A stretch of 64,000 nt of DNA from Promethearchaeota archaeon (GTDB lineage: Archaea; Asgardarchaeota; Lokiarchaeia; Sigyniarchaeales; SOKP01): NCBI GenBank assembly GCA_016839705.1, contig JAEOTR010000030.1:39084-103083 (forward strand). Direction: 5' to 3'. A program made the position numbers and the translations under genes. Positions 31,458 through 48,149 of the stretch are shown piece by piece (position 1 is the first letter of the stretch; each line of letters begins with the position of its first letter). The notes beneath the pieces were generated by a model. That model saw only the letters and a program-made list of their open reading frames with translations. It was not told the DNA's origin and searched no databases.

Positions 31458-31622
31458 ATGAAGATAATATCAAAGAAGAAAAAGAAGAGATATAACTATG
31501 AAAATGATGAATATGATGACGAAAATGATGAATATGATGACGAAAATGACAAAGATGATGATCGGGACTACAAAGGGGAGGAGGAAGAAGAATTAGACAA
31601 TGTTGACGAAATTTATAATTAA
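31458..31622 (+). CDS. Unannotated basic-then-acidic microprotein (54 aa; 59 aa from TTG 31443)
   Basis: MKIISKKKKKRYNYENDEYDDENDEYDDENDKDDDRDYKGEEEEELDNVDEIYN; TATA at 31396-31403; internal 21-bp tandem duplication. Confidence 0.5.
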   Translation: MKIISKKKKKRYNYENDEYDDENDEYDDENDKDDDRDYKGEEEEELDNVDEIYN

Positions 31623-31717: not shown

Positions 31718-32374
31718 ATGGAAGAAGTTAAAAATGTTGAAAGTATGGCTATTGAAAATTCAAAAATAGCAAAGGATGAAAAGTTTAAAGCAGAAGCGAT
31801 GAAAAAGTTAACAAAACAAGAGGTAAAAAGGGCAAAAGCAAGAGAAATGTTAGTTAAAAATGAAATTGAACTAGCAAAAATACGAGAAAATTTAGCTGAA
31901 GAGAGTAAGAAATTAGTGGAGAGAAAAGAAAAAGTAAAAAAAATATTAAATTTTTCTGAAGCTAGTTTAAAAGCTGAGCTAAATCAAGCTGTTTACAATG
32001 AAAAAGTTGCAGAGGTTCAAAAAGATGTAGCTGAAATTCAACGAAAGATTACTCATACTGAAACTGAAATTACGGAAGTAAATCTAAAACTGGTTAGAAA
32101 AAAACTTAATGAGGCTAAAGGAAGGAGTAATTTGGCTAAAAAACAGTTTGTTTACGTCAAATTAGTGAATGCTAATGCTCCTGGCGAAAAAGTTGGGAAA
32201 GCTGAAGAAGTTTATCTTAAACTACAGAAACATTTAACCAAATTTGAAACTGATGCAATGGAAATAAATAAAGAGATGGTTGAGAAACAGAATAAATTAG
32301 CTAACCTGAAAAAACAACTCTCTGAGAAATTAGCAGAAAGGGAAAAAATCAGACCTATAGATTCTAGTTCCTAA
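31718..32374 (+). CDS. All-helical coiled-coil protein (paralog of 34496..35164)
   Basis: K/E-rich heptads; shares KARE.LVK.E.EL, IL.FS and ER.KIR with the paralog. Confidence 0.8.
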   Translation: MEEVKNVESMAIENSKIAKDEKFKAEAMKKLTKQEVKRAKAREMLVKNEIELAKIRENLAEESKKLVERKEKVKKILNFSEASLKAELNQAVYNEKVAEVQKDVAEIQRKITHTETEITEVNLKLVRKKLNEAKGRSNLAKKQFVYVKLVNANAPGEKVGKAEEVYLKLQKHLTKFETDAMEINKEMVEKQNKLANLKKQLSEKLAEREKIRPIDSSS

Positions 32375-32903: not shown

Positions 32904-33110
32904 TTGGAAAATCCTGAGAATTTAGAAATAAAAGCACAAAAAAATTTAGCAATTGCAGAAAATGAAAAATTAATCTTTAAAGATTCTAAAATTTAGCTGA
33001 AAAGAGTAAAAAACTAATCGAGAGAAAAGAAGAAGTTAAAGATATTCTAAATTTTTCTAATAATAAATTTAAAAACGAAGAAGATTATGCTATTTACAAT
33101 ATAAAAGTTA
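32904..33110 (+). pseudogene. Internally deleted remnant of the coiled-coil family
   Basis: MENPENLEIKAQKNLAIAENEK, then shifted-frame NLAEKSKKLIERKEEVKDILNFS...DYAIYN; close DNA match to about 31888-31960. Confidence 0.75.
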
Positions 33111-34495: not shown

Positions 34496-35164
34496 TTATC
34501 CCGCAATAATAACTCCTGGGTGTCTAATTTTTCCTCTTTCTGTGAACTTTAGAGATAATTCCTTCTTTAATTCGGCAAGTTTATTTTCTTTTTTCTTTAT
34601 GTCTTTTTCTTTTTCCAATACATCATCTTTTTGTTTTAATAGATGTTTTTTATAGCCTTCATAATGATTTTTCGCTTTCAATATTTTACTTTCTGATGCA
34701 TCTTGTCGAAATACTTTAAGATAAATAGTTTGCTTTTTGGCTAATTTTTCTCGAGCCTTAGCTACATCTAATTTTTCCTCAGACAACTTTAGTTTTAGCT
34801 CAGCTATTTGTTTCTCAACTGCAGCAATCTTCTTATGAACTTCAGCAATTTCTTTTTGATTTATTGATATCTTCTCATTGTAATCGGCATAATCATTTTC
34901 ATTCTTTAAATCCTCATCAGAAAAATCTAGAATTTGATTTTTTTTAATATCTGATTTTTCCTTTGCTAATATTTTTCTTTTTTCGGCTAAATCCTTTTTT
35001 ATTTCAGCTAATTCATATTCAATTTTTACTAGAGTTTCTCTAGCTTTTGATTTTTTTATTTCAAGAAGAGCATTAACTTTTGATTTTTGGGCTAATTCTT
35101 TCTCAAACTTAGCAATTTTCAAATTCTGTTGGGCTTCTTTCTCAATAATAGTTAAATTTTCCAT
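34496..35164 (-). CDS. All-helical coiled-coil protein (paralog of 31718..32374)
   Basis: Colinear similarity to 31718..32374. Confidence 0.8.
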   Translation of the reverse strand: MENLTIIEKEAQQNLKIAKFEKELAQKSKVNALLEIKKSKARETLVKIEYELAEIKKDLAEKRKILAKEKSDIKKNQILDFSDEDLKNENDYADYNEKISINQKEIAEVHKKIAAVEKQIAELKLKLSEEKLDVAKAREKLAKKQTIYLKVFRQDASESKILKAKNHYEGYKKHLLKQKDDVLEKEKDIKKKENKLAELKKELSLKFTERGKIRHPGVIIAG

Positions 35165-39094: not shown

Positions 39095-39208
39095 TTAGTC
39101 TTCTTCCCAATCTTCATCTTCGTCATCTTCGTCGTCATAATCTTCGTCCTCATCCCATTCATCATCTTTAGCGTACATCATTTCCCAATTCTTATTGTTT
39201 GAATTCAT
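39095..39208 (-). CDS. Unannotated 37-aa acidic Trp-containing micropeptide
   Basis: MNSNNKNWEMMYAKDDEWDEDEDYDDEDDEDEDWEED; own TATA (39290-39297, minus strand); synonymous codons vary within the acidic run. Confidence 0.6.
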   Translation of the reverse strand: MNSNNKNWEMMYAKDDEWDEDEDYDDEDDEDEDWEED

Positions 39209-39932
39209 TTATCTTATCTCTATTTTTTTATTATTGATTATAGATTAAAATTATCATATACTTTCAAATACGATAAAAGACATATAATATATTTAAATGT
39301 TTCTGATTTGAATAACAACTATTGAAGTTAAAATTATTAATTCAATTTGAAAAAAATTTAAATCTGAGAAATATTATTAGTAGGTTTTTGAAAGCCTTGC
39401 TTTTCTTAACTTTAAGATGTACTAGTTTATTTTTGTAATATATTTTGATTAGTTCTTAGAAGTATATAAAACACTCATAAATTTAATGAAATATTTAATA
39501 GATCTGAGAATATTAATTTTTTCGTAATAATTCTATAATTGTAAAATTCTATATCGTACCAAATTGTTATTTTTAGCTATTATTAAGTTTCCATGGGTAA
39601 GACTTTTCCGATTTTCAAAAACAATTATAGAATGAAAAAGGAATATTTAATCCATTTTGTATCTATCTCCTTGGATTTAAAAATAATTCCATCATCGCTA
39701 TACTCATAATATTTCATTAAAAACAGCCTGTAGACCTATTTTAAACTTCACTTAATTAATTATAAAAAATATAGAAATATTTATAAACAAGTCAGTTTTT
39801 ATTTAACCTCAGATAAACATGTTCATCTTTATTCAAAATAATCAAATCTATGTATTACCAAAATAAAATTTGAATAAGAAATCAAAGATTTAAAGCAAAA
39901 TCTATGAAGAATATAAAGGAGGGATAAATTAA

Positions 39933-40139
39933 ATGCATAACGGTAAAAAACTTAAAGGGTGGGAAAAGGAAACCTCAGATATTAAAGTAGATGGTCAAAA
40001 TATCAGAAAAGAAATTGAAAGTATAAAAACGATTCTTAAAACATTACAAATTGAAGTTGAGAGAATTCTAAAAAAGTTAGATATGAAATCAAGTGGGGAA
40101 GAAATGAGAGACAGAATGTTCAAATCTGAAAACAGGTAA
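39933..40139 (+). CDS. Small helical protein (68 aa)
   Basis: GGAGG upstream; ends 8 nt before the next gene. Confidence 0.65.
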   Translation: MHNGKKLKGWEKETSDIKVDGQNIRKEIESIKTILKTLQIEVERILKKLDMKSSGEEMRDRMFKSENR

Positions 40140-40147
40140 ACTAATCA

Positions 40148-42082
40148 ATGAGGAGCCAAATAGAAAACAGAATTAGTAAAAATAAGACTCTGGAAAACAG
40201 AGAAAAAAATAGCCCTATCTGTTTTGGACCAGTTCTCAACTTAGAAGAATATGTAAAGAAAGATTGGTGGAAAAGAGTTTTTAATTCTTATTATTTAAAA
40301 ACAGATGGTGATGTAGTAGAAGATCAAAATATTACCAAATATGAAGTAGACTTTTTTTCAGAAATTATGAAATTTAAACCAGATCACTTTATTTTGGATC
40401 TCTGTTGTGGCCAAGGGAGACATTCTATTGAATTAAGTAGAAGAGGTTTCGAAAATATTTTTGGTTTGGATAAATCACGATATTTAATTCAAAAAGCCAA
40501 ATTGAATGCTAAAAAAAATGGAGTGTTATGTAGATTTAGAGAAGGAGATGCTAGAAAATTACCATTTACTTCAGATTTTTTTGATTTTATAATGGTTTTA
40601 GGTAACAGTTTTGGATATTTTGAATCTATTAATGATGATGTGCAAGTTCTTAAAGAAATTTATCGAGTTTTAAAACCTTGGGGTAAAATTTTAATTGATA
40701 TTACAGATGGAGATTATATAAAAAATAATTTTCAACCACGCTCGTGGGAATGGCTAGATAAAGATCTTTTTGTTTGTCGTGAGAGAACATTATCATTGGA
40801 TGATCAACGATTAATCTCTCGCGAAGTCATAACTCATGTAAATAAAGGAGTATTAGTGGATCAGTTCTATGCTGAAAGGTTATATTCAAATGGAAAAATT
40901 TCTGAAATTTTGAAGAAAGTTGGTTTTAGTGATATAACCTATCATGGTATAATAACTCCTGAATCTCAGAGGAATCAAGATTTAGGTATGATGGAACAAA
41001 GAATTATAGTTAGTGCTTTAGTTAAAAAGGAATGGACAGAAATTAGAAAAAAACCAAAAGCGAGACAAAAAAAAGTAGTAGTCATATTTGGAGACCCTAA
41101 TAAACCAGATGTGCTTAAACCTTCAAATATTTTTGATGATGACGATTTTTATACAATAGATCAATTAAAAACCGCTCTAAATCAGTTTAGAGAATATTCT
41201 TTCTCATATTTGGATAATCATGATACCTTAATCAATGATCTACAAGATTTAAAAGGTAAATTTGATTATGTTTTAAACCTATGTGATGAAGGTTATTTTA
41301 ATGATGCTCGAAACGAATTGCATATACCGGCATTATTAGAGATGCTTAGATTCTCATATACGGGATCTGGACCTCAATGTCTTGCCTTTTGTTATGATAA
41401 GTCTTTAGTAAGAGGTATAGCCAGAGAATTACAAATACCTACTCCAGAAGCTATTTACATAAAACCTGGTGATAAGATTATTGATCTGACTCTATATTTC
41501 CCTGCGATTGTTAAACCTAATTTCGGTGATTCGAGTTTTGGCATTACTCAAAAATCTGTCGTAAATAATGGTGAGGAATTATTAAGTGCTATTACCGGAA
41601 TTCGCAATCAGTTTGGTTATGATAAGCCCGTTTTAATTGAGCAATTTCTTACGGGTAAAGATTTAACTATGGGAATTATCGGAAATCCACGTGATAATTA
41701 TATTATTCTACCTATAATAGAAGAAGATTATTCTTGTTTACCTCCAGAATTGCCAAAAATATGTGGTTACGAAGCAAAATGGCAACCAAATTCACCATAT
41801 TGGAACATTAAATCTAAACCAGCAAATCTTCATCCTGATGTTGTTGATATTATAGAAAATTCTTCGCTTAAATTATTTGAGCGATTAGAATGTCAGGATT
41901 ATGCACGATTTGATTGGCGTTTAGATGCTAAAGGAAATCCAAAGCTTTTGGAAGTAAATCCAAATCCTGGATGGTGTTGGGATGGACATCTAGCAAAGAT
42001 GTGTAAGTATGCCGATATTTCATATAAAGATATGTTAAAAAAAATTTTAGAGGGAGCAGAAAAACGCATTGGATTAATTTAA
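40148..42082 (+). CDS. Class I SAM methyltransferase fused to D-Ala-D-Ala-ligase-like ATP-grasp domain
   Basis: LDLCCGQGRH and GNSFGYF; then YTGSG, CYDK, IVKP..GDSSFGI, YEAKW, RFDWR and LEVNPNPG. Confidence 0.9.
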   Translation: MRSQIENRISKNKTLENREKNSPICFGPVLNLEEYVKKDWWKRVFNSYYLKTDGDVVEDQNITKYEVDFFSEIMKFKPDHFILDLCCGQGRHSIELSRRGFENIFGLDKSRYLIQKAKLNAKKNGVLCRFREGDARKLPFTSDFFDFIMVLGNSFGYFESINDDVQVLKEIYRVLKPWGKILIDITDGDYIKNNFQPRSWEWLDKDLFVCRERTLSLDDQRLISREVITHVNKGVLVDQFYAERLYSNGKISEILKKVGFSDITYHGIITPESQRNQDLGMMEQRIIVSALVKKEWTEIRKKPKARQKKVVVIFGDPNKPDVLKPSNIFDDDDFYTIDQLKTALNQFREYSFSYLDNHDTLINDLQDLKGKFDYVLNLCDEGYFNDARNELHIPALLEMLRFSYTGSGPQCLAFCYDKSLVRGIARELQIPTPEAIYIKPGDKIIDLTLYFPAIVKPNFGDSSFGITQKSVVNNGEELLSAITGIRNQFGYDKPVLIEQFLTGKDLTMGIIGNPRDNYIILPIIEEDYSCLPPELPKICGYEAKWQPNSPYWNIKSKPANLHPDVVDIIENSSLKLFERLECQDYARFDWRLDAKGNPKLLEVNPNPGWCWDGHLAKMCKYADISYKDMLKKILEGAEKRIGLI

Positions 42083-42114
42083 TCTCAAATAACATACAAT
42101 ATTTTTAATGAAAA

Positions 42115-43326
42115 ATGGGAATAACAGACTTTAATGATGATTTGAAAATACCACCAGATCCAGATGGTGCTATTTTATATATTCGATATCTTGAAAAAAA
42201 ATTAAAAGATCTTGATATTGAAAAAAAAAAATTAGAACCGGAATTATCAAAATTAGAATATGAGGTTCATAATCTTAAAAAAGAAATTGAACGCTTTGGG
42301 GAATTGCCTTTAATAAAAGCTAATATAGTTGACATTCTAGACGATAAAAATGAACGCGTTATTGTAAATTGTCACCCTAATACCAGATATGTTGTTAATG
42401 TTTCTAATAATCTCCAAAATTGTAAACTTTCTCCTGGTTTAAGTGTTGCATTAAACCAAAGAAATTATACCGTAATGGAAATTTTATCTTCTGAAATTGA
42501 TCCTTTCATAAAAGGAATGGAGGTAATAGATACTCCAATAAACGTTTCATATGATGATATTGGAGGATTAGATACACAGATTCAAGAAGTAAGAGAGGTT
42601 ATAGAGTTACCCCTAAAGAGACCTGAATTATTTGAAAAAATTGGGATTGATCCCCCTAAAGGGGTTCTTTTTTATGGATATCCTGGAACAGGTAAAACCT
42701 TGTTAGCTAAAGCTGTTGCTCATGACACGCATGCCACATTTATAAAAGTAGTAGGGACTGAACTAGTTCATAAATTCATCGGTGAAGGTGCTCAATTTGT
42801 GAGAGAGATTTTCAAATTGGCAAGAGAAAAAGCCCCAACTATTTTATTTATTGATGAGTTAGATGCAATAGGCTCTATAAGAATGGAAGATGCTACATCA
42901 GGAGATAGAGAAGTAAATAGAACATTAATGCAGATATTAAGTGAATTAGATGGATTTGATCAACGGGGTAATATAAAATTTATAGGGGCAACAAATAGAG
43001 CGGATATTTTAGATCCAGCATTGTTAAGACCGGGTCGATTTGACAGGTTAATTGAATTTCCTTTACCGGATGAGAAAGCGAGAGAATCCATATTTAAAAT
43101 TCATATGAGGGGTTTACATATTAACGATAAGATTAATTTAAAAACGTTATTAGAGCTTACTAAAGATGCTAATGGTTCACATATTAAGGGTATATGTACA
43201 GAAGCAGGGATGTATGCAATAAGAAGAAATTCTGAAATAATTTCAAATGAAGATTTTTTAATGGCAGTAGATAAAATTATGAGGTTAAAGAAGGAAGATT
43301 TTTCCTCGAGTGAATTATATTCTTAA
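42115..43326 (+). CDS. pan: Proteasome-activating nucleotidase paralog
   Basis: N-terminal coiled coil plus OB domain; GYPGTGKT, KFIGEG, EVNRTLMQ and RPGRFDR; C-terminal LYS (HbYX). Confidence 0.92.
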   Translation: MGITDFNDDLKIPPDPDGAILYIRYLEKKLKDLDIEKKKLEPELSKLEYEVHNLKKEIERFGELPLIKANIVDILDDKNERVIVNCHPNTRYVVNVSNNLQNCKLSPGLSVALNQRNYTVMEILSSEIDPFIKGMEVIDTPINVSYDDIGGLDTQIQEVREVIELPLKRPELFEKIGIDPPKGVLFYGYPGTGKTLLAKAVAHDTHATFIKVVGTELVHKFIGEGAQFVREIFKLAREKAPTILFIDELDAIGSIRMEDATSGDREVNRTLMQILSELDGFDQRGNIKFIGATNRADILDPALLRPGRFDRLIEFPLPDEKARESIFKIHMRGLHINDKINLKTLLELTKDANGSHIKGICTEAGMYAIRRNSEIISNEDFLMAVDKIMRLKKEDFSSSELYS

Positions 43327-43332
43327 TTAAAT

Positions 43333-44457
43333 TTAAAGAAAGAAATCTAAAAGTAGCAATATAAATTCCATTATGAAAATAAAGGTTAGTAATATTTCGA
43401 CAAAAAGTAAAAATCTTTCATTAATACTTGATTGTGTAAAATTGTAAATATTTTCTAACGTCTCAAGACGGTGTCTTATACTATCACTCCATTGTTTTAA
43501 TTGGAAAAGATCGGCTAAATGTCTATAGATTTGAGCTAAATAATAGTCTCCGATTAGCTTTGAAACATTTTCAATATTTTCTAATAAAAAAAGCAAATCA
43601 TAGTGTAATCTAATTAATCTCCCAACTTTTCTTTTAGATCTTCTTAAAAAACTTCTACTTTTAAAATAAAAATTACGTAAATCTTCTTCCGCGATGGTTA
43701 ATCTTCTATCTAGTAACTTATCTAAAGTACGCAATTCAAGTAATTGAAAATTGGCAATTTCAGTTGCAAGTAAGATATCTTCATAATCAGAATTTTGATC
43801 AATTAAAATGGCTCTTTCAAAGTCAAAGATACCTAAATCGTTTTTTAAAAATGAAAATGTATGATCAAGAGTTTGATTGATTTGATCTTGACTTAATTCT
43901 AAATTGGGATTCTCTCCATTAAGTAAAGTTGAGAAATAATTCTTCTCTTTTTGAAGAAACTCTTTTGGATCTGAAATCCCATTAGTTAAACAGAATATTG
44001 TATATTTTTCATGTTCTGTCTCCCCAAATATAAATCCTTCATCTTCTATGTAATCTCTAATTTGTTTAAGAATTTTATTATGGTGATATTTCAAAAAATT
44101 ATTAATTTGAAATTCCCCTTCTGTAGTTTTAAATCTAATTTTCTTTAATGTATGTAATTCATTATGGGGAAAATCTGTAAAGAGTAATCTAGCAATCAAA
44201 GAGATTACTCCATCTGAATATACTTTAATATATATAGTAATATTATGAAATGATTTTAACTCTGTAGATATCGATTGGGTGATTTCTATTATTAAAGGTT
44301 CGGGGAAATCTACATATGAGGGTGTATTCTTTGTCTTGATAATTTTTTTGTCTGGAATAGCAGGAATTATTGTAGCAACTTTACTCAAATCGATACTACG
44401 TCCTACATCTGTTAAACGGAAAAAAATAACTTCACCATCTAAAAACGATACTGTCAT
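43333..44457 (-). CDS. RMD1/DUF155-like protein with C-terminal TM
   Basis: DVGRSIDL, IGDYYLAQIY and RLETLENIY; terminal hydrophobic helix. Confidence 0.55.
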   Translation of the reverse strand: MTVSFLDGEVIFFRLTDVGRSIDLSKVATIIPAIPDKKIIKTKNTPSYVDFPEPLIIEITQSISTELKSFHNITIYIKVYSDGVISLIARLLFTDFPHNELHTLKKIRFKTTEGEFQINNFLKYHHNKILKQIRDYIEDEGFIFGETEHEKYTIFCLTNGISDPKEFLQKEKNYFSTLLNGENPNLELSQDQINQTLDHTFSFLKNDLGIFDFERAILIDQNSDYEDILLATEIANFQLLELRTLDKLLDRRLTIAEEDLRNFYFKSRSFLRRSKRKVGRLIRLHYDLLFLLENIENVSKLIGDYYLAQIYRHLADLFQLKQWSDSIRHRLETLENIYNFTQSSINERFLLFVEILLTFIFIMEFILLLLDFFL

Positions 44458-44645: not shown

Positions 44646-45647
44646 TTAAGCCCTTCCTAACCTTTGCATTAATCCTGTGATTAAAATTGGAAAAGCGATG
44701 GTGGCATCACACCAAACGCTTACCGATTTTGAATCTGGTGCATATTTTCCCCACGATTTTGATTCTGAAACGGTACAACCAGAAAGGCCACCATCATATT
44801 CCATTGCAGTATGGAGTCTAATTGAATATTTATATCCGAATTCATTATCTTTTCTTTCCAATTGTTCAACATTTTCTATATAAGGATAAATTTGTTGAGC
44901 CCAATTTCTTGGAACCCCACCCCCAACAATTATTATTCCGCATTCTTTAGCATTTTTAACAATTTGAGCGAACTTTTTTACATCATTAAGAACCCTAAAG
45001 TCGATGTCATAATTTTCTATTTCTGTGAATTTTATCAAGTCCAATGCAAATTCTGAATCAGAAATAGCAGGAACGAATATGGGAATATTTTTTTTTGCAG
45101 CAACAGATAAGATACACTTTTTAGAGATCTCTTGACCGATGAGCTTAAAAAAGTCCGAAGGCATTATTTCAAATTCTCTTGAATCAAAAATTTTTTTTAA
45201 AATTCGTAATAATTCTATTTCTGCTATGTCATAATTATCTTCAGGGAGAAATACATCATATATTCGATTAATTCTTTCTTTATACAAAAAATTATCATCA
45301 ACTTCAGAACTTCCAATATAATGCCCCCCATTTGTGACAGCATCAATAAAATCATGAGTAATATTTGCTCCGGTTGAAACTAAAACATCGACTAGATTAT
45401 GTTCCAATAATGTGCTTATCAAATTACCCATTCCCGCAGGCACCATAGCTCCGGATAGAGTTAGAATGGTTAAACATTCTTTATCAGTGACCATTTGATA
45501 TAAAATATCAAGAGCCATTCCTAACCTACCTCCCTGGAAACCGCAATTCATTAGTTCTTTTAAGAAATCATCACTATTTTTCACTTTTTTAAGATCATAC
45601 GGTACAATCTTTTTCCTCAAATATTCTTCTCTTCTAAATTGCGTCAT
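44646..45647 (-). CDS. dys: Deoxyhypusine synthase family protein, copy 2
   Basis: CGFQG, LSGAMVPAGM, STGANITHD, DSE and DGGLSG...ESKSWGK motifs. Confidence 0.9.
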   Translation of the reverse strand: MTQFRREEYLRKKIVPYDLKKVKNSDDFLKELMNCGFQGGRLGMALDILYQMVTDKECLTILTLSGAMVPAGMGNLISTLLEHNLVDVLVSTGANITHDFIDAVTNGGHYIGSSEVDDNFLYKERINRIYDVFLPEDNYDIAEIELLRILKKIFDSREFEIMPSDFFKLIGQEISKKCILSVAAKKNIPIFVPAISDSEFALDLIKFTEIENYDIDFRVLNDVKKFAQIVKNAKECGIIIVGGGVPRNWAQQIYPYIENVEQLERKDNEFGYKYSIRLHTAMEYDGGLSGCTVSESKSWGKYAPDSKSVSVWCDATIAFPILITGLMQRLGRA

Positions 45648-45660
45648 ATCCTAATCAACC

Positions 45661-46653
45661 TCAAATAATCTTTAAACGCTGAAATAGACCTGTTATTAAT
45701 ATTGGTAAAGCTATTGTGGCATCACACCATACACTTATATATTTTGATTCTAAATGGTATTTCCCCCAAGATTTTGATTCTGATACGGTACATCCTGATA
45801 AGCCCCCATCATATTTTGGGGCGGTATGGATTCTAATTGAATAATTATATCCCATATTTTTGATACCCTCAGTTTGATCCAAAAGAGGAAATATTTGTTG
45901 TGCCCAATTTCGAGGTACCCCACCCCCAATTATTATCGTAGCATATTTTTTTGCCTTCCTTATAATATCAGCAAACATCTGAACTTCCTTCAAAATATCG
46001 AATTGAAAGTCATATCCTTCTCTTAAAGAATATTTTATTAAGTTTAATGCAAATTCTGAGTCTGAAAAAGCGGGTATAAAAATAGGTATATTATTTTGTG
46101 CCGCAACGGATATAATACATCGGTTTTCAATCTTCTCTCCTATTTTTTTTATAAGTTCATGTGGAGTAATTTGAACTTTTTTATCATTGAAGATCTCTTT
46201 AATTATTCCTAACAATATGATTTCTGCATGTTCATAATTTTCTTCAGGGAGAAAAACATCATAGATTCTATTAATTCGAAATTTAAATAATTGGTTATCA
46301 TCTACATCTGAACTCCCCTTGAAATGTCCAATATCTGTTGTAACATCTACTAGATCATGGATAATATTAGCTCCTGTTGTAACTAAGACATCAATAAAAT
46401 GATATTCCAGTAATATGCATATTAGTTCCCCCATTCCAGCAGGAACCATCGCTCCACTTAGTGTTAAAACGGTTAAACAATCTTCTTCTACAATCATCTT
46501 CTCTAGAAGATCTAATGCTTTCCCTAAATTTCTTCCTTGAAAGCCACAGAATTTTAAAGCAGACAATAAGGCATCAATATTTTTCACTTCTTTGGGATCA
46601 AATGGCTTAATCTTTGTACTTAAATCTATTTTTTCTTTATTATTTTCTGTCAT
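45661..46653 (-). CDS. dys: Deoxyhypusine synthase family protein, copy 1
   Basis: Same motifs as copy 2, including ESKSWGK. Confidence 0.9.
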   Translation of the reverse strand: MTENNKEKIDLSTKIKPFDPKEVKNIDALLSALKFCGFQGRNLGKALDLLEKMIVEEDCLTVLTLSGAMVPAGMGELICILLEYHFIDVLVTTGANIIHDLVDVTTDIGHFKGSSDVDDNQLFKFRINRIYDVFLPEENYEHAEIILLGIIKEIFNDKKVQITPHELIKKIGEKIENRCIISVAAQNNIPIFIPAFSDSEFALNLIKYSLREGYDFQFDILKEVQMFADIIRKAKKYATIIIGGGVPRNWAQQIFPLLDQTEGIKNMGYNYSIRIHTAPKYDGGLSGCTVSESKSWGKYHLESKYISVWCDATIALPILITGLFQRLKII

Positions 46654-47000
46654 TATTTAATTTCGTTAGTAATTATATTTATTAATAAATTCCTCTTTAT
46701 ATTATTTTTCATAAACGAATTTTTACGTAATCTATTTATGATATACGAAAGAAAGTCTAAACTTTCCATCCAATTGATTGATATAGTTATAAACAAATCA
46801 ATACTTTGATTTAACATGAAATAATACATTTATATTAAGTGAATAAAGACTAATTCGACCTTGATAAGAAGCAAGAGGTTTATATTAAATCTAATAAATA
46901 ATAATTTTATACTATTTTATGGATTTCAACACATTTAAAAACTTGTGATTCTTTCTTATATCTTAGATAATTATCGCAATATAAAAGGTGTTAGTTAAGA

Positions 47001-47549
47001 ATGTCGTTTGTTCCTAAAGCTGTCTTTTTTGTAACAGGCAAAGGCTATCATAAATCTAAACTAGGTTCATTCGAACAAGCCTTACGTAATGCGGATATAG
47101 CAATATATAATATTGTTAAAGTAAGTTCAATATTACCCCCATACTGTTTAGAAATTCCGAAAGAAGATGGGCTTGCGCAATTAAGGTCAGGTCAAGTTGT
47201 ATTTACAGTATTAAGTCGAGTCAGTAGTAATGAATATAACCGTCTAATCTCTGCTTCTATTGGTGTTGCAAAACCAGCAGACACAAGAACTTATGGCTAT
47301 TTAAGTGAACATCATGAATTTGGCGTTAAACCAGAAAAAGCGGGAGAATTTGCGGAGGATTTAGCAGCAGAAATGCTTGCCACCACTCTTGGCGTTTCTT
47401 TTGATCCAGAAGCAAATTATGATGAAAAAAAAGAAATTTTTAAAATGGATGGAAAAATCGTTGAAACTAAAAATTATACAGAATCAGGCGTAGTAAGAGA
47501 AGAAGGGGAGTGGCTGACTGTAATAGCAGCAGCAGTTTTTATTTTATAA
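47001..47549 (+). CDS. pdaD: Pyruvoyl-dependent arginine decarboxylase
   Basis: SFEQALRNA, NIVKVSSILPP (self-cleavage site), GYLSEHH and AEDLAAEML. Confidence 0.93.
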   Translation: MSFVPKAVFFVTGKGYHKSKLGSFEQALRNADIAIYNIVKVSSILPPYCLEIPKEDGLAQLRSGQVVFTVLSRVSSNEYNRLISASIGVAKPADTRTYGYLSEHHEFGVKPEKAGEFAEDLAAEMLATTLGVSFDPEANYDEKKEIFKMDGKIVETKNYTESGVVREEGEWLTVIAAAVFIL

Positions 47550-47660
47550 TCTGATGATATTTTGGATACTGACGATATATCTATTTTTTATAATTTTTTA
47601 TAATAAAATAAAGAACTTACGAATAACTTTAGAGAAATTAAATACTTCTCTGGCATATTT

Positions 47661-48149
47661 TTACCAACAATGGAATTCAGAAAATTTTCTGTATTTTTCT
47701 AACCAGGGACAAAATTTATATGTAGAATAATCCTCGGTTATTTCTTCTCCGGGTTGAATATCCCTGTCAGCAATTGCACAAAATCCGGGTTCATCCTTAG
47801 AAGTTCCAGAGTTAGCATTAGATGAATGGTTAATGTATCTTGAATCATCCAAGCAAAAAACTAAGGTATCAGTATCTTTTTCATAATAAGAATACGTGAG
47901 TACACATTCTATATAATTATTCGTTAAAGGTGATTTATCTGAGGTCATTAGCGTTAAAAACTGTTCCTTTGTCATGATTAGAACATCTTGTGGTCGAGCA
48001 TGCCAAAAAATTGTTTTTTCTGGTATAAACTTCTTTGCAAATACTCCTAAGCCATGAATCTTACTTGGTTTAACTTCTGCATATTCCATAAATGGATTTA
48101 TTGGAGTTAGGTTATAGGGAATTTTTTTAATATGGTTCTTTAATACCAT
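47661..48149 (-). CDS. SET-domain protein (lysine methyltransferase-like)
   Basis: SKIHGLGVFA, RYINHS..AN and DIQPGEEITEDY motifs. Confidence 0.9.
   Translation of the reverse strand: MVLKNHIKKIPYNLTPINPFMEYAEVKPSKIHGLGVFAKKFIPEKTIFWHARPQDVLIMTKEQFLTLMTSDKSPLTNNYIECVLTYSYYEKDTDTLVFCLDDSRYINHSSNANSGTSKDEPGFCAIADRDIQPGEEITEDYSTYKFCPWLEKYRKFSEFHCW

Follow-up and report, generated by a model that had tools for sequence, protein, structure and literature searches.

A methyltransferase-ligase fusion enzyme and its link to a second proteasomal ATPase in one family of Lokiarchaea

In the actinobacterial Pup-proteasome system (pup, pafA, dop and arc/mpa), a small gene, a ligase gene and the gene of a proteasomal ATPase are found close together. 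The same layout, and only the layout, recurs in a Promethearchaeota archaeon (GenBank assembly GCA_016839705.1, 93% complete, here called G000), in a stretch of 64,000 nucleotides of contig JAEOTR010000030.1 that was analysed as a whole and is referred to as the window. Three co-oriented genes, separated by gaps of 8 and 32 nt, encode a 68-aa protein, a fusion of an S-adenosylmethionine (SAM)-dependent methyltransferase with a ligase resembling D-Ala-D-Ala ligase (Ddl), and a proteasomal ATPase of the PAN type, which will be called PAN2. PafA has a glutamine-synthetase fold, whereas the ligase here is an ATP-grasp enzyme, and the ATPase is ARC in the one case and PAN in the other.

The individual parts resemble other described systems. 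The ligase half shares the full three-domain ATP-grasp fold and the catalytic residues with Ddl (DdlA/DdlB, VanA; PF07478, TIGR01205), while the methyltransferase half has the same class I core and four-strand cap as NmbA and glycine/sarcosine N-methyltransferase, both of which methylate an amino-acid nitrogen. Two PAN genes, with a penultimate Tyr or Phe in their products, are likewise present in Haloferax volcanii (PanA/PanB) and Methanosarcina mazei (PAN-A/PAN-B) (PMC3493965). By the features tested, the unit belongs to none of the Pup, ubiquitin/SAMP, LysW, Ddl and NmbA systems; its ATPase is a PAN.

The evidence favours, with reasonable though not high confidence, the view that the fusion makes an N-methylated aminoacyl-amide metabolite, that it is co-regulated with the auxiliary PAN2 in one lokiarchaeal family, and that the 68-aa gene is a passenger. 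It is from the observed fold, catalytic residues and distribution of the fusion that we infer the type of reaction and a small-molecule substrate. An earlier note on this DNA, made from the sequence alone, had preferred a tag-and-degrade system and named a small-molecule role as its alternative; the alternative appears to be the better reading. Three points are new here: at the family level, the fusion and pan2 are linked and share a promoter element; the insertion of the 68-aa gene can be retraced; and NmbA offers a lead. The fusion is conserved in hundreds of bacteria and archaea, cultured methanogens included, and its two halves point to an N-methylated amide metabolite that could be sought directly in Methanosarcina or Methanolobus. 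Databases name the protein "methyltransferase domain-containing protein" or misname it Ddl, and the literature searched contained no study of the fusion and no paper on its product.

The fusion enzyme and its distribution

The three genes, their spacing and the domain calls of the earlier note are confirmed by open reading frame (ORF) calls and by Pfam/NCBIfam profiles (Table 1). The structure of the fusion was taken from an alignment-based AlphaFold model (predicted local distance difference test, pLDDT, 81; the single-sequence fold reached only 33), in which there are two complete domains, about residues 40-295 and 305-643. The ligase half retains the residues for ATP, Mg and acyl-phosphate (K418, K456, S462, E498, R587, D589, E602, N604 and G608). 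Its D-Ala-1 site, which in Ddl we take to be Glu15 and His63 in E. coli DdlB numbering, is swapped for invariant acidic motifs, FDDDDF instead of EREVS and NLCDEG instead of HG, and the C-terminal TxxSLxP of Ddl has become WCWDGHL. The fold matches Ddl structures (VIA Z 25-28, root-mean-square deviation 2.3-3.3 Å over 272-298 residues) better than it matches LysX/ArgX and RimK (Z 20-21), and the score against the Ddl family is 114 bits, with a cut-off of 245.65. The replaced D-Ala-1 site and this low score rule out a D-Ala-D-Ala ligase, as had been expected when the ligase was assigned another substrate. The enzyme also differs from Ddl in being fused to a methyltransferase, and its carriers keep a separate true Ddl, a canonical one being present in 29 of the 31 bacterial carriers.

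For the methyltransferase domain, the best sequence match in the PDB is NmbA (9RI2; residues 38-261 on 14-234, E 9e-25 with the single sequence and 1e-26 with a profile), followed by glycine/sarcosine N-methyltransferase (5GWX/5H02). NmbA N-methylates the cysteine amine of bacillithiol (PMC12719100). Unlike the methyltransferase described here, it is a stand-alone protein, and the bacillithiol pathway is not co-distributed with the fusion: BshC was not found in G000 and has a strong match in only 3 of 47 fusion carriers (BshA and BshB were not searched). Bacillithiol itself is rejected as the substrate because BshC does not co-occur.

Relatives of the fusion were confirmed at 540 GTDB loci and are 55-69% identical in bacteria and methanogens; among the best 80 of the 540 are Planctomycetota, Atribacterota, WOR-3, Thermotogota and others, these having 61-69% identity. 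The fusion is present in 57 of 251 Asgard genomes, and about 44 near-full-length copies exist in 301 methanogen-phylum genomes, the named carriers being Methanosarcina, Methanolobus, Methanofollis, Methanoplanus and Methanohalophilus. No plasmid copies were found. The active-site motifs of the ligase are identical in Lokiarchaea, bacteria and methanogens, so that the pan-linked lineage gives no sign of a changed substrate. The neighbours, on the other hand, vary by lineage: trmD-rplS in Phycisphaerae-type loci, a 2-oxoacid oxidoreductase in Jord- and Freyarchaeia, and an ArsB/NhaD-type permease in Methanosarcina-type and related methanogen-phylum loci. As far as gene order can tell, this is the pattern of a self-sufficient gene. 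At the Planctomycetota loci L095, L097-L099, L102 and L107 the fusion lies directly after trmD, in several cases followed by rplS, within a ribosomal-protein operon.

The nearest sister of the ligase domain (33-40% identity) is a pair of Ddl-like ligases in operons with a KamA-like aminomutase and a GNAT acetyltransferase. These operons, present in methanogens and in other Loki families, combine two ligases and an acetyltransferase, to which a radical-SAM aminomutase is added in methanogens. They share the motifs FNLxEG and YExKW with the fusion ligase and are also found in archaea without peptidoglycan; they differ in having no methyltransferase fusion and, in the loci examined, no pan nearby. 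Archaeal examples, often with the GNAT domain fused, are L172-L174 and L204-L209.

The ATP-grasp half of the fusion would activate an amino-acid carboxylate as acyl-phosphate and join it to a small amine acceptor, in a chemistry other than D-Ala-D-Ala ligation because the D-Ala-1 site has been replaced. The acidic pocket would suit a cationic amine partner. The SAM half would then or beforehand N-methylate a free amino group of the product or of the substrate. The product might be an N-methylated dipeptide or aminoacyl-amine, and probably a protective one, such as a solute, a thiol-like compound or a polyamine conjugate.

It could also be imagined that the fusion is a universal modifier of proteins or peptides, which adds an amino acid to, and N-methylates a terminus of, a conserved cellular target encoded elsewhere, for example a translation protein, and which has a purely regulatory link with PAN2. 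The very high conservation across domains would agree with this, as would the placement within a ribosomal operon (trmD-rplS) at several loci of Planctomycetota; so would the structural neighbours of the methyltransferase, since these comprise not only many small-molecule N-methyltransferases but also some that act on peptide N-termini (CypM, CgnL). Such a role is nevertheless unlikely. The patchy presence and the loss in close relatives (28/36 in the genus) fit an accessory metabolite better, the Ddl architecture is a closed one and the ligase groups with the small-molecule ligases of the KamA operons, and there is no conserved precursor gene near the fusion outside one family.

PAN2 and its association with the fusion gene

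PAN2 passes the NCBIfam cut-offs for PAN (531.6 and 521.5 bits, cut-off 500) and scores 220 bits with the ARC profile, of which the cut-off is 504.75. Its coiled coil, OB and AAA domains, Walker A (GYPGTGKT), Walker B, pore loop and Arg finger are intact. The description of this protein as a complete PAN with an HbYX tail is correct for the window, where the protein ends in a strict L-Y-S, but among the orthologs such a strict tail is the exception: the usual ending is Hb-F-X. The latter is counted as an HbYX motif in which Phe is a weaker activator than Tyr (PMC3493965).

The G000 assembly contains only one PAN, besides four genes for 20S subunits and three for E2 ubiquitin-conjugating enzymes. 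Most relatives in the genus have two PANs: PAN1, which is conserved (about 580-595 bits, tail S-R-L-Y-S), and PAN2, which evolves faster. Because PAN1 is located elsewhere in all five of the closest genomes tested, it is probably unassembled in G000. In phylogenetic trees, the window gene falls in PAN2, which is sister to PAN1 within the Loki family (support 100/100 or 99/100). The suggestion that the window encodes a second PAN paralog is thus borne out by the relatives and the phylogeny, although it is not visible in G000 itself. As PAN1 and PAN2 group within the Loki family, their origin looks like a duplication separate from those in Haloferax and Methanosarcina; a further apparent difference is the co-transcription of the lokiarchaeal PAN2 with a biosynthetic enzyme. 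A family-level PAN duplication with a shared promoter would have a modest bearing on the diversification of proteasomal ATPases in Asgard archaea. Within one genus there are two mutually exclusive PAN2 clades (L124-L132 versus L031-L055 and L133-L136), of which one (GPPGTGKT, tail x-F-F-I/V) is found at an unrelated locus and the other near the fusion.

In a sample of the genus with 29 fusion carriers, pan2 lies directly downstream of the fusion in 16, and one locus is cut by a contig end. In three carriers pan2 is found 1.4-2.7 kb upstream, separated from the fusion by other genes; nine have no pan near the fusion, eight of these possessing the other PAN2 clade elsewhere. Conversely, genome G004 has the window-type PAN2 and no detected fusion. 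Adjacency is also observed in two further genera of the family (G427 and G545; G559, G479, G623 and G626), with different flanks. Outside the family, pan adjoins the fusion at none of 34 methanogen-phylum loci and at none of nine loci of other Asgard families, and no PAN was found in any of the 31 bacterial carriers (in which ARC/Mpa and 20S genes were not searched). The pair is therefore a real but family-limited association that is often lost, and its conservation extends to three genera of a single Loki family.

A promoter-like element precedes the unit and is probably its promoter, judging from its sequence and position. It is present 215-275 nt before the fusion genus-wide, whether or not pan2 follows, and 153 nt before the 68-aa gene where this gene is present. 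G000 has one strong copy (44 bits; best shuffled sequence 11), and no second strong copy indicative of a wider regulon was found there. With a matrix trained only on sites preceding the fusion or the 68-aa gene, the separated pan2 genes score 31, 31 and 20 bits, while upstream of PAN1 and of the other PAN2 clade the scores are -5 to -16; in pairwise alignments the element at separated pan2 genes reaches z values of 6-13, against 1 or less. The similar element at separated pan2 genes may reflect promoter duplication, common regulation, or both, and it provides the best evidence for selected co-expression.

Table 1. Features of the locus, with positions in the window unless a residue range or another locus is given
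Feature	Position	Strand	Basis or remark
68-aa ORF	39933-40139	+	ORF call
644-aa fusion ORF	40148-42082	+	ORF call
403-aa PAN2 ORF	42115-43326	+	ORF call
Promoter-like element	39771-39816	+	BRE (B recognition element)-like GAAATA; TATA box TTTATAAA at 39780-39787; conserved TCARAT box about 30 nt downstream
37-aa hyper-acidic Asp/Glu micro-protein, punctuated by Trp/Tyr	39095-39208	-	ORF, divergent from the unit
Methyltransf_25	residues 82-179 of the 644-aa protein		Pfam, E 5.5e-21
Dala_Dala_lig_C	residues 448-635 of the 644-aa protein		Pfam, E 3.7e-26
Fusion domains	methyltransferase about residues 26-296; basic linker; Ddl-fold ATP-grasp about residues 305-643		profile and model
Leader ORF in relatives	L034:5844-6029, L050:5844-5993, L246:5311-5466 and others		absent from the window owing to a deletion between 40139 and 40148

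The 68-aa gene, the fusion and pan2 are probably one transcription unit. Most likely, these genes are transcribed together and their products have no effect on each other, a case of shared regulation and not of tagging and destruction. In one Loki family, the fusion would have come under a PAN2-type promoter, and in many members the two genes would be co-transcribed. Auxiliary PANs are generally tied to stress. On this basis, the fusion and PAN2, of which the adjacency and the shared element are observed, would probably form a unit responding to a stress or growth-phase signal.

A simpler possibility is that the adjacency is a positional accident inherited from the family ancestor, with local shuffling and promoter duplication and without selected co-regulation. 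The coexistence of fusion-pan2 pairs, separated genes, the fusion alone and pan2 alone within one genus would be expected in that case, and related genomes are not independent of each other. Survival of the pair in three genera with different flanks and the similar upstream element of the separated copies make this explanation improbable, somewhat more so than that of a universal modifier.

The 68-aa gene, the acidic micro-gene and the tagging model

The closest relatives are metagenome-assembled genomes of Promethearchaeota (Lokiarchaea). The 68-aa gene is real: it has its own AGGAGG at 39917-39922, 34 homologous clusters were found among 5.8 billion proteins searched, and its homologs diverge most strongly at third codon positions (mismatch 0.22/0.19/0.35 by codon position). 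It is present in 8 of 135 family genomes, all of one genus, and was not found in the other 127. In four of the eight carriers it precedes the fusion and in the other four it is located elsewhere. On metagenomic contigs it is also found before pan2 in the absence of the fusion (L245, L247), before genes of the major facilitator superfamily (L244), and, without the promoter element, after mobA or dhs. At L245:5001-6534, L247:5001-6519 and L239, the promoter, the 68-aa gene and pan2 (Walker A GAPGTGKTM) follow in a row with no fusion between.

The protein has a helical sequence of the heptad (coiled-coil) type and ends in S-E-N-R, its conserved core being internal. The C-termini of 11 homologs vary in length and sequence, and none has GG or GGE. 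It has no Pfam family above the cut-off, nothing significant in PHROGs and no IMG/VR locus, and a search of the ESM Atlas gave only matches below 0.9. A complex prediction with a dimer of the PAN2 N-domain reached a score of 0.17 (mark 0.32), which is no answer either way. The two most distant relatives of the gene are found among virus-like genes on low-GC contigs (L115:5001-5213 and L118:5001-5201), with thymidylate synthase, endonuclease VII and a DNA methylase as neighbours on one contig type and a DNA polymerase fragment on the other. These two metagenomic contig types, which are the whole basis of the viral link, possibly belong to viruses of Lokiarchaea.

In relatives without the 68-aa gene, the region before the fusion holds a leader ORF of 47-62 codons, the ATG of which is conserved and lies about 157 nt upstream of the fusion. 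In 21 loci, chosen for showing the ORF, it has 2 stops in 903 codons, whereas the other forward frames have 116-118; of the shuffled sequences about 1.5% are open, and there is no codon-position bias. It was encountered again in seven more fetched loci, some of which overlap the earlier genomes, and no credible Rfam match exists for the leader. Its features suggest a leader that is translated for regulation or coupling. At locus L246 the 68-aa gene and the old leader are found together, and across relatives the gap between the 68-aa gene and the fusion is 250, 141, 72, 27, 8 or -4 nt. Comparison of these loci shows an insertion of the 68-aa gene into the 5' leader within a single sub-lineage of one genus, followed by a deletion of the old leader that led to the 8-nt gap; owing to the intermediate and the gap series, the tight spacing can be considered a derived state. 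On the comparative evidence, the 68-aa gene is thus a passenger, a recent add-on and not a conserved part of a system.

The acidic micro-gene upstream is a far more faithful companion of the locus than the 68-aa gene. Of 69 family loci (some of them the same genome fetched twice), 46 have it at most 1.5 kb upstream of the fusion, divergent in most and co-oriented in several, and it stands beside the separated pan2 in G024 and G025. A comparable gene was found near none of 90 fusion loci outside the family, and by this distribution its product cannot be a general substrate of the fusion. The C-termini of the acidic proteins vary and there is no cysteine motif. Ten family members gave no Pfam match, DSS1/Sem1 (PF05160) included, at E up to 10, a search with little power for such short low-complexity sequences. 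Four hyper-acidic, aromatic-punctuated micro-genes exist in G000, the one listed in Table 1, another in the window at 31458-31622 (+), and two at C52:56192-56356 and 96559-96732. At L246, a hyper-acidic micro-gene directly precedes an HSP20 gene.

Several known conjugation systems could be rejected. PF03136, the Pfam family of PafA/Dop and thus of the Pup ligase, was not found in G000; together with the lack of a GGE/GGQ tail in the 68-aa protein and the acidic peptides, and of co-conservation of the genes, this argues against membership of the Pup system. Ubiquitin/SAMP conjugation does not apply to a helical protein without GG or Pfam assignment, and the fusion has no E1 domain. Carrier ligation of the LysW/LysX type is ruled out by a ligase fold closer to Ddl than to the RimK family and by acidic micro-proteins without a cysteine motif or a fixed EDWGE-type C-terminus.

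Three observations weigh against the preferred reading of a metabolic enzyme that merely shares its regulation with PAN2. Firstly, the likeness of the methyltransferase to CypM and CgnL would also be compatible with a peptide substrate. Secondly, the 68-aa gene directly precedes pan2 in two lineages that have no fusion there (L245 and L247/L239). Thirdly, the retention of the pair in three genera despite changing flanks is more than inertia, and no known shared function explains it. 

The pupylation-like tag-and-degrade system of the earlier note is not upheld: the enzyme is conserved in bacteria without detected PAN and unlinked to pan in methanogens and other Asgard families, the three-gene synteny that the note had proposed to test across archaea dissolves (68-aa gene and fusion together in 4 of 135 family genomes, fusion-pan2 in one family), and the supposed tag adjoins the fusion in no more than half of its few carriers and lacks a C-terminus conserved for ligation. 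Were there a third tagging route to the proteasome, one based on ATP-grasp, it would be important, but the comparative evidence makes it unlikely. A co-option restricted to the Loki family, with the enzyme attaching or maturing a tag by which substrates reach PAN2 (the acidic Trp/Tyr micro-protein being a more plausible tag than the 68-aa protein), could draw on the family-level linkage with its shared promoter, on the frequent and sometimes co-oriented acidic micro-gene that moved with pan2 in two genomes, and on the 68-aa gene before pan2, yet it is very improbable in view of active-site motifs that are the same in bacteria without detected PAN, the rarity and variable C-terminus of the 68-aa protein, the variable C-termini of the acidic peptides, whose gene is on the opposite strand here, and a genome in which no Pup ligase was found and three E2 enzymes are already encoded. 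Just as remote is the variant in which the fusion, the acidic micro-protein and PAN2 would constitute a ubiquitin-independent proteostasis module, with a small tag or an N-methylated degron that the enzyme attaches or matures and PAN2 reads.

Neighbouring genes in the window

A convergent gene for a 374-aa protein lies 6 nt past the end of pan2 (43333-44457, -). Much of the family keeps it as a neighbour of the fusion, and it has no Pfam or NCBIfam match. At 44646-48149, the window holds two tandem deoxyhypusine-synthase paralogs (dhs), a divergent arginine decarboxylase-like gene (pdaD) and a SET-domain gene. This dhs-dhs-pdaD and SET neighbourhood is found near the fusion in several Loki loci, and also beside the sister ligase pair in G050, and was not seen at bacterial or methanogen fusion loci. 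A polyamine link of the fusion might be considered a weak lead. L174 has a similar dhs-pdaD pair close to the sister Ddl-like ligases, and in L065 a SET gene lies directly 3' of the fusion. Further away, the window encodes two paralogous basic coiled-coil proteins (31718-32374, +, and 34496-35164, -), which are 46% identical and of no known family, with a fragment at about 32990-33110.

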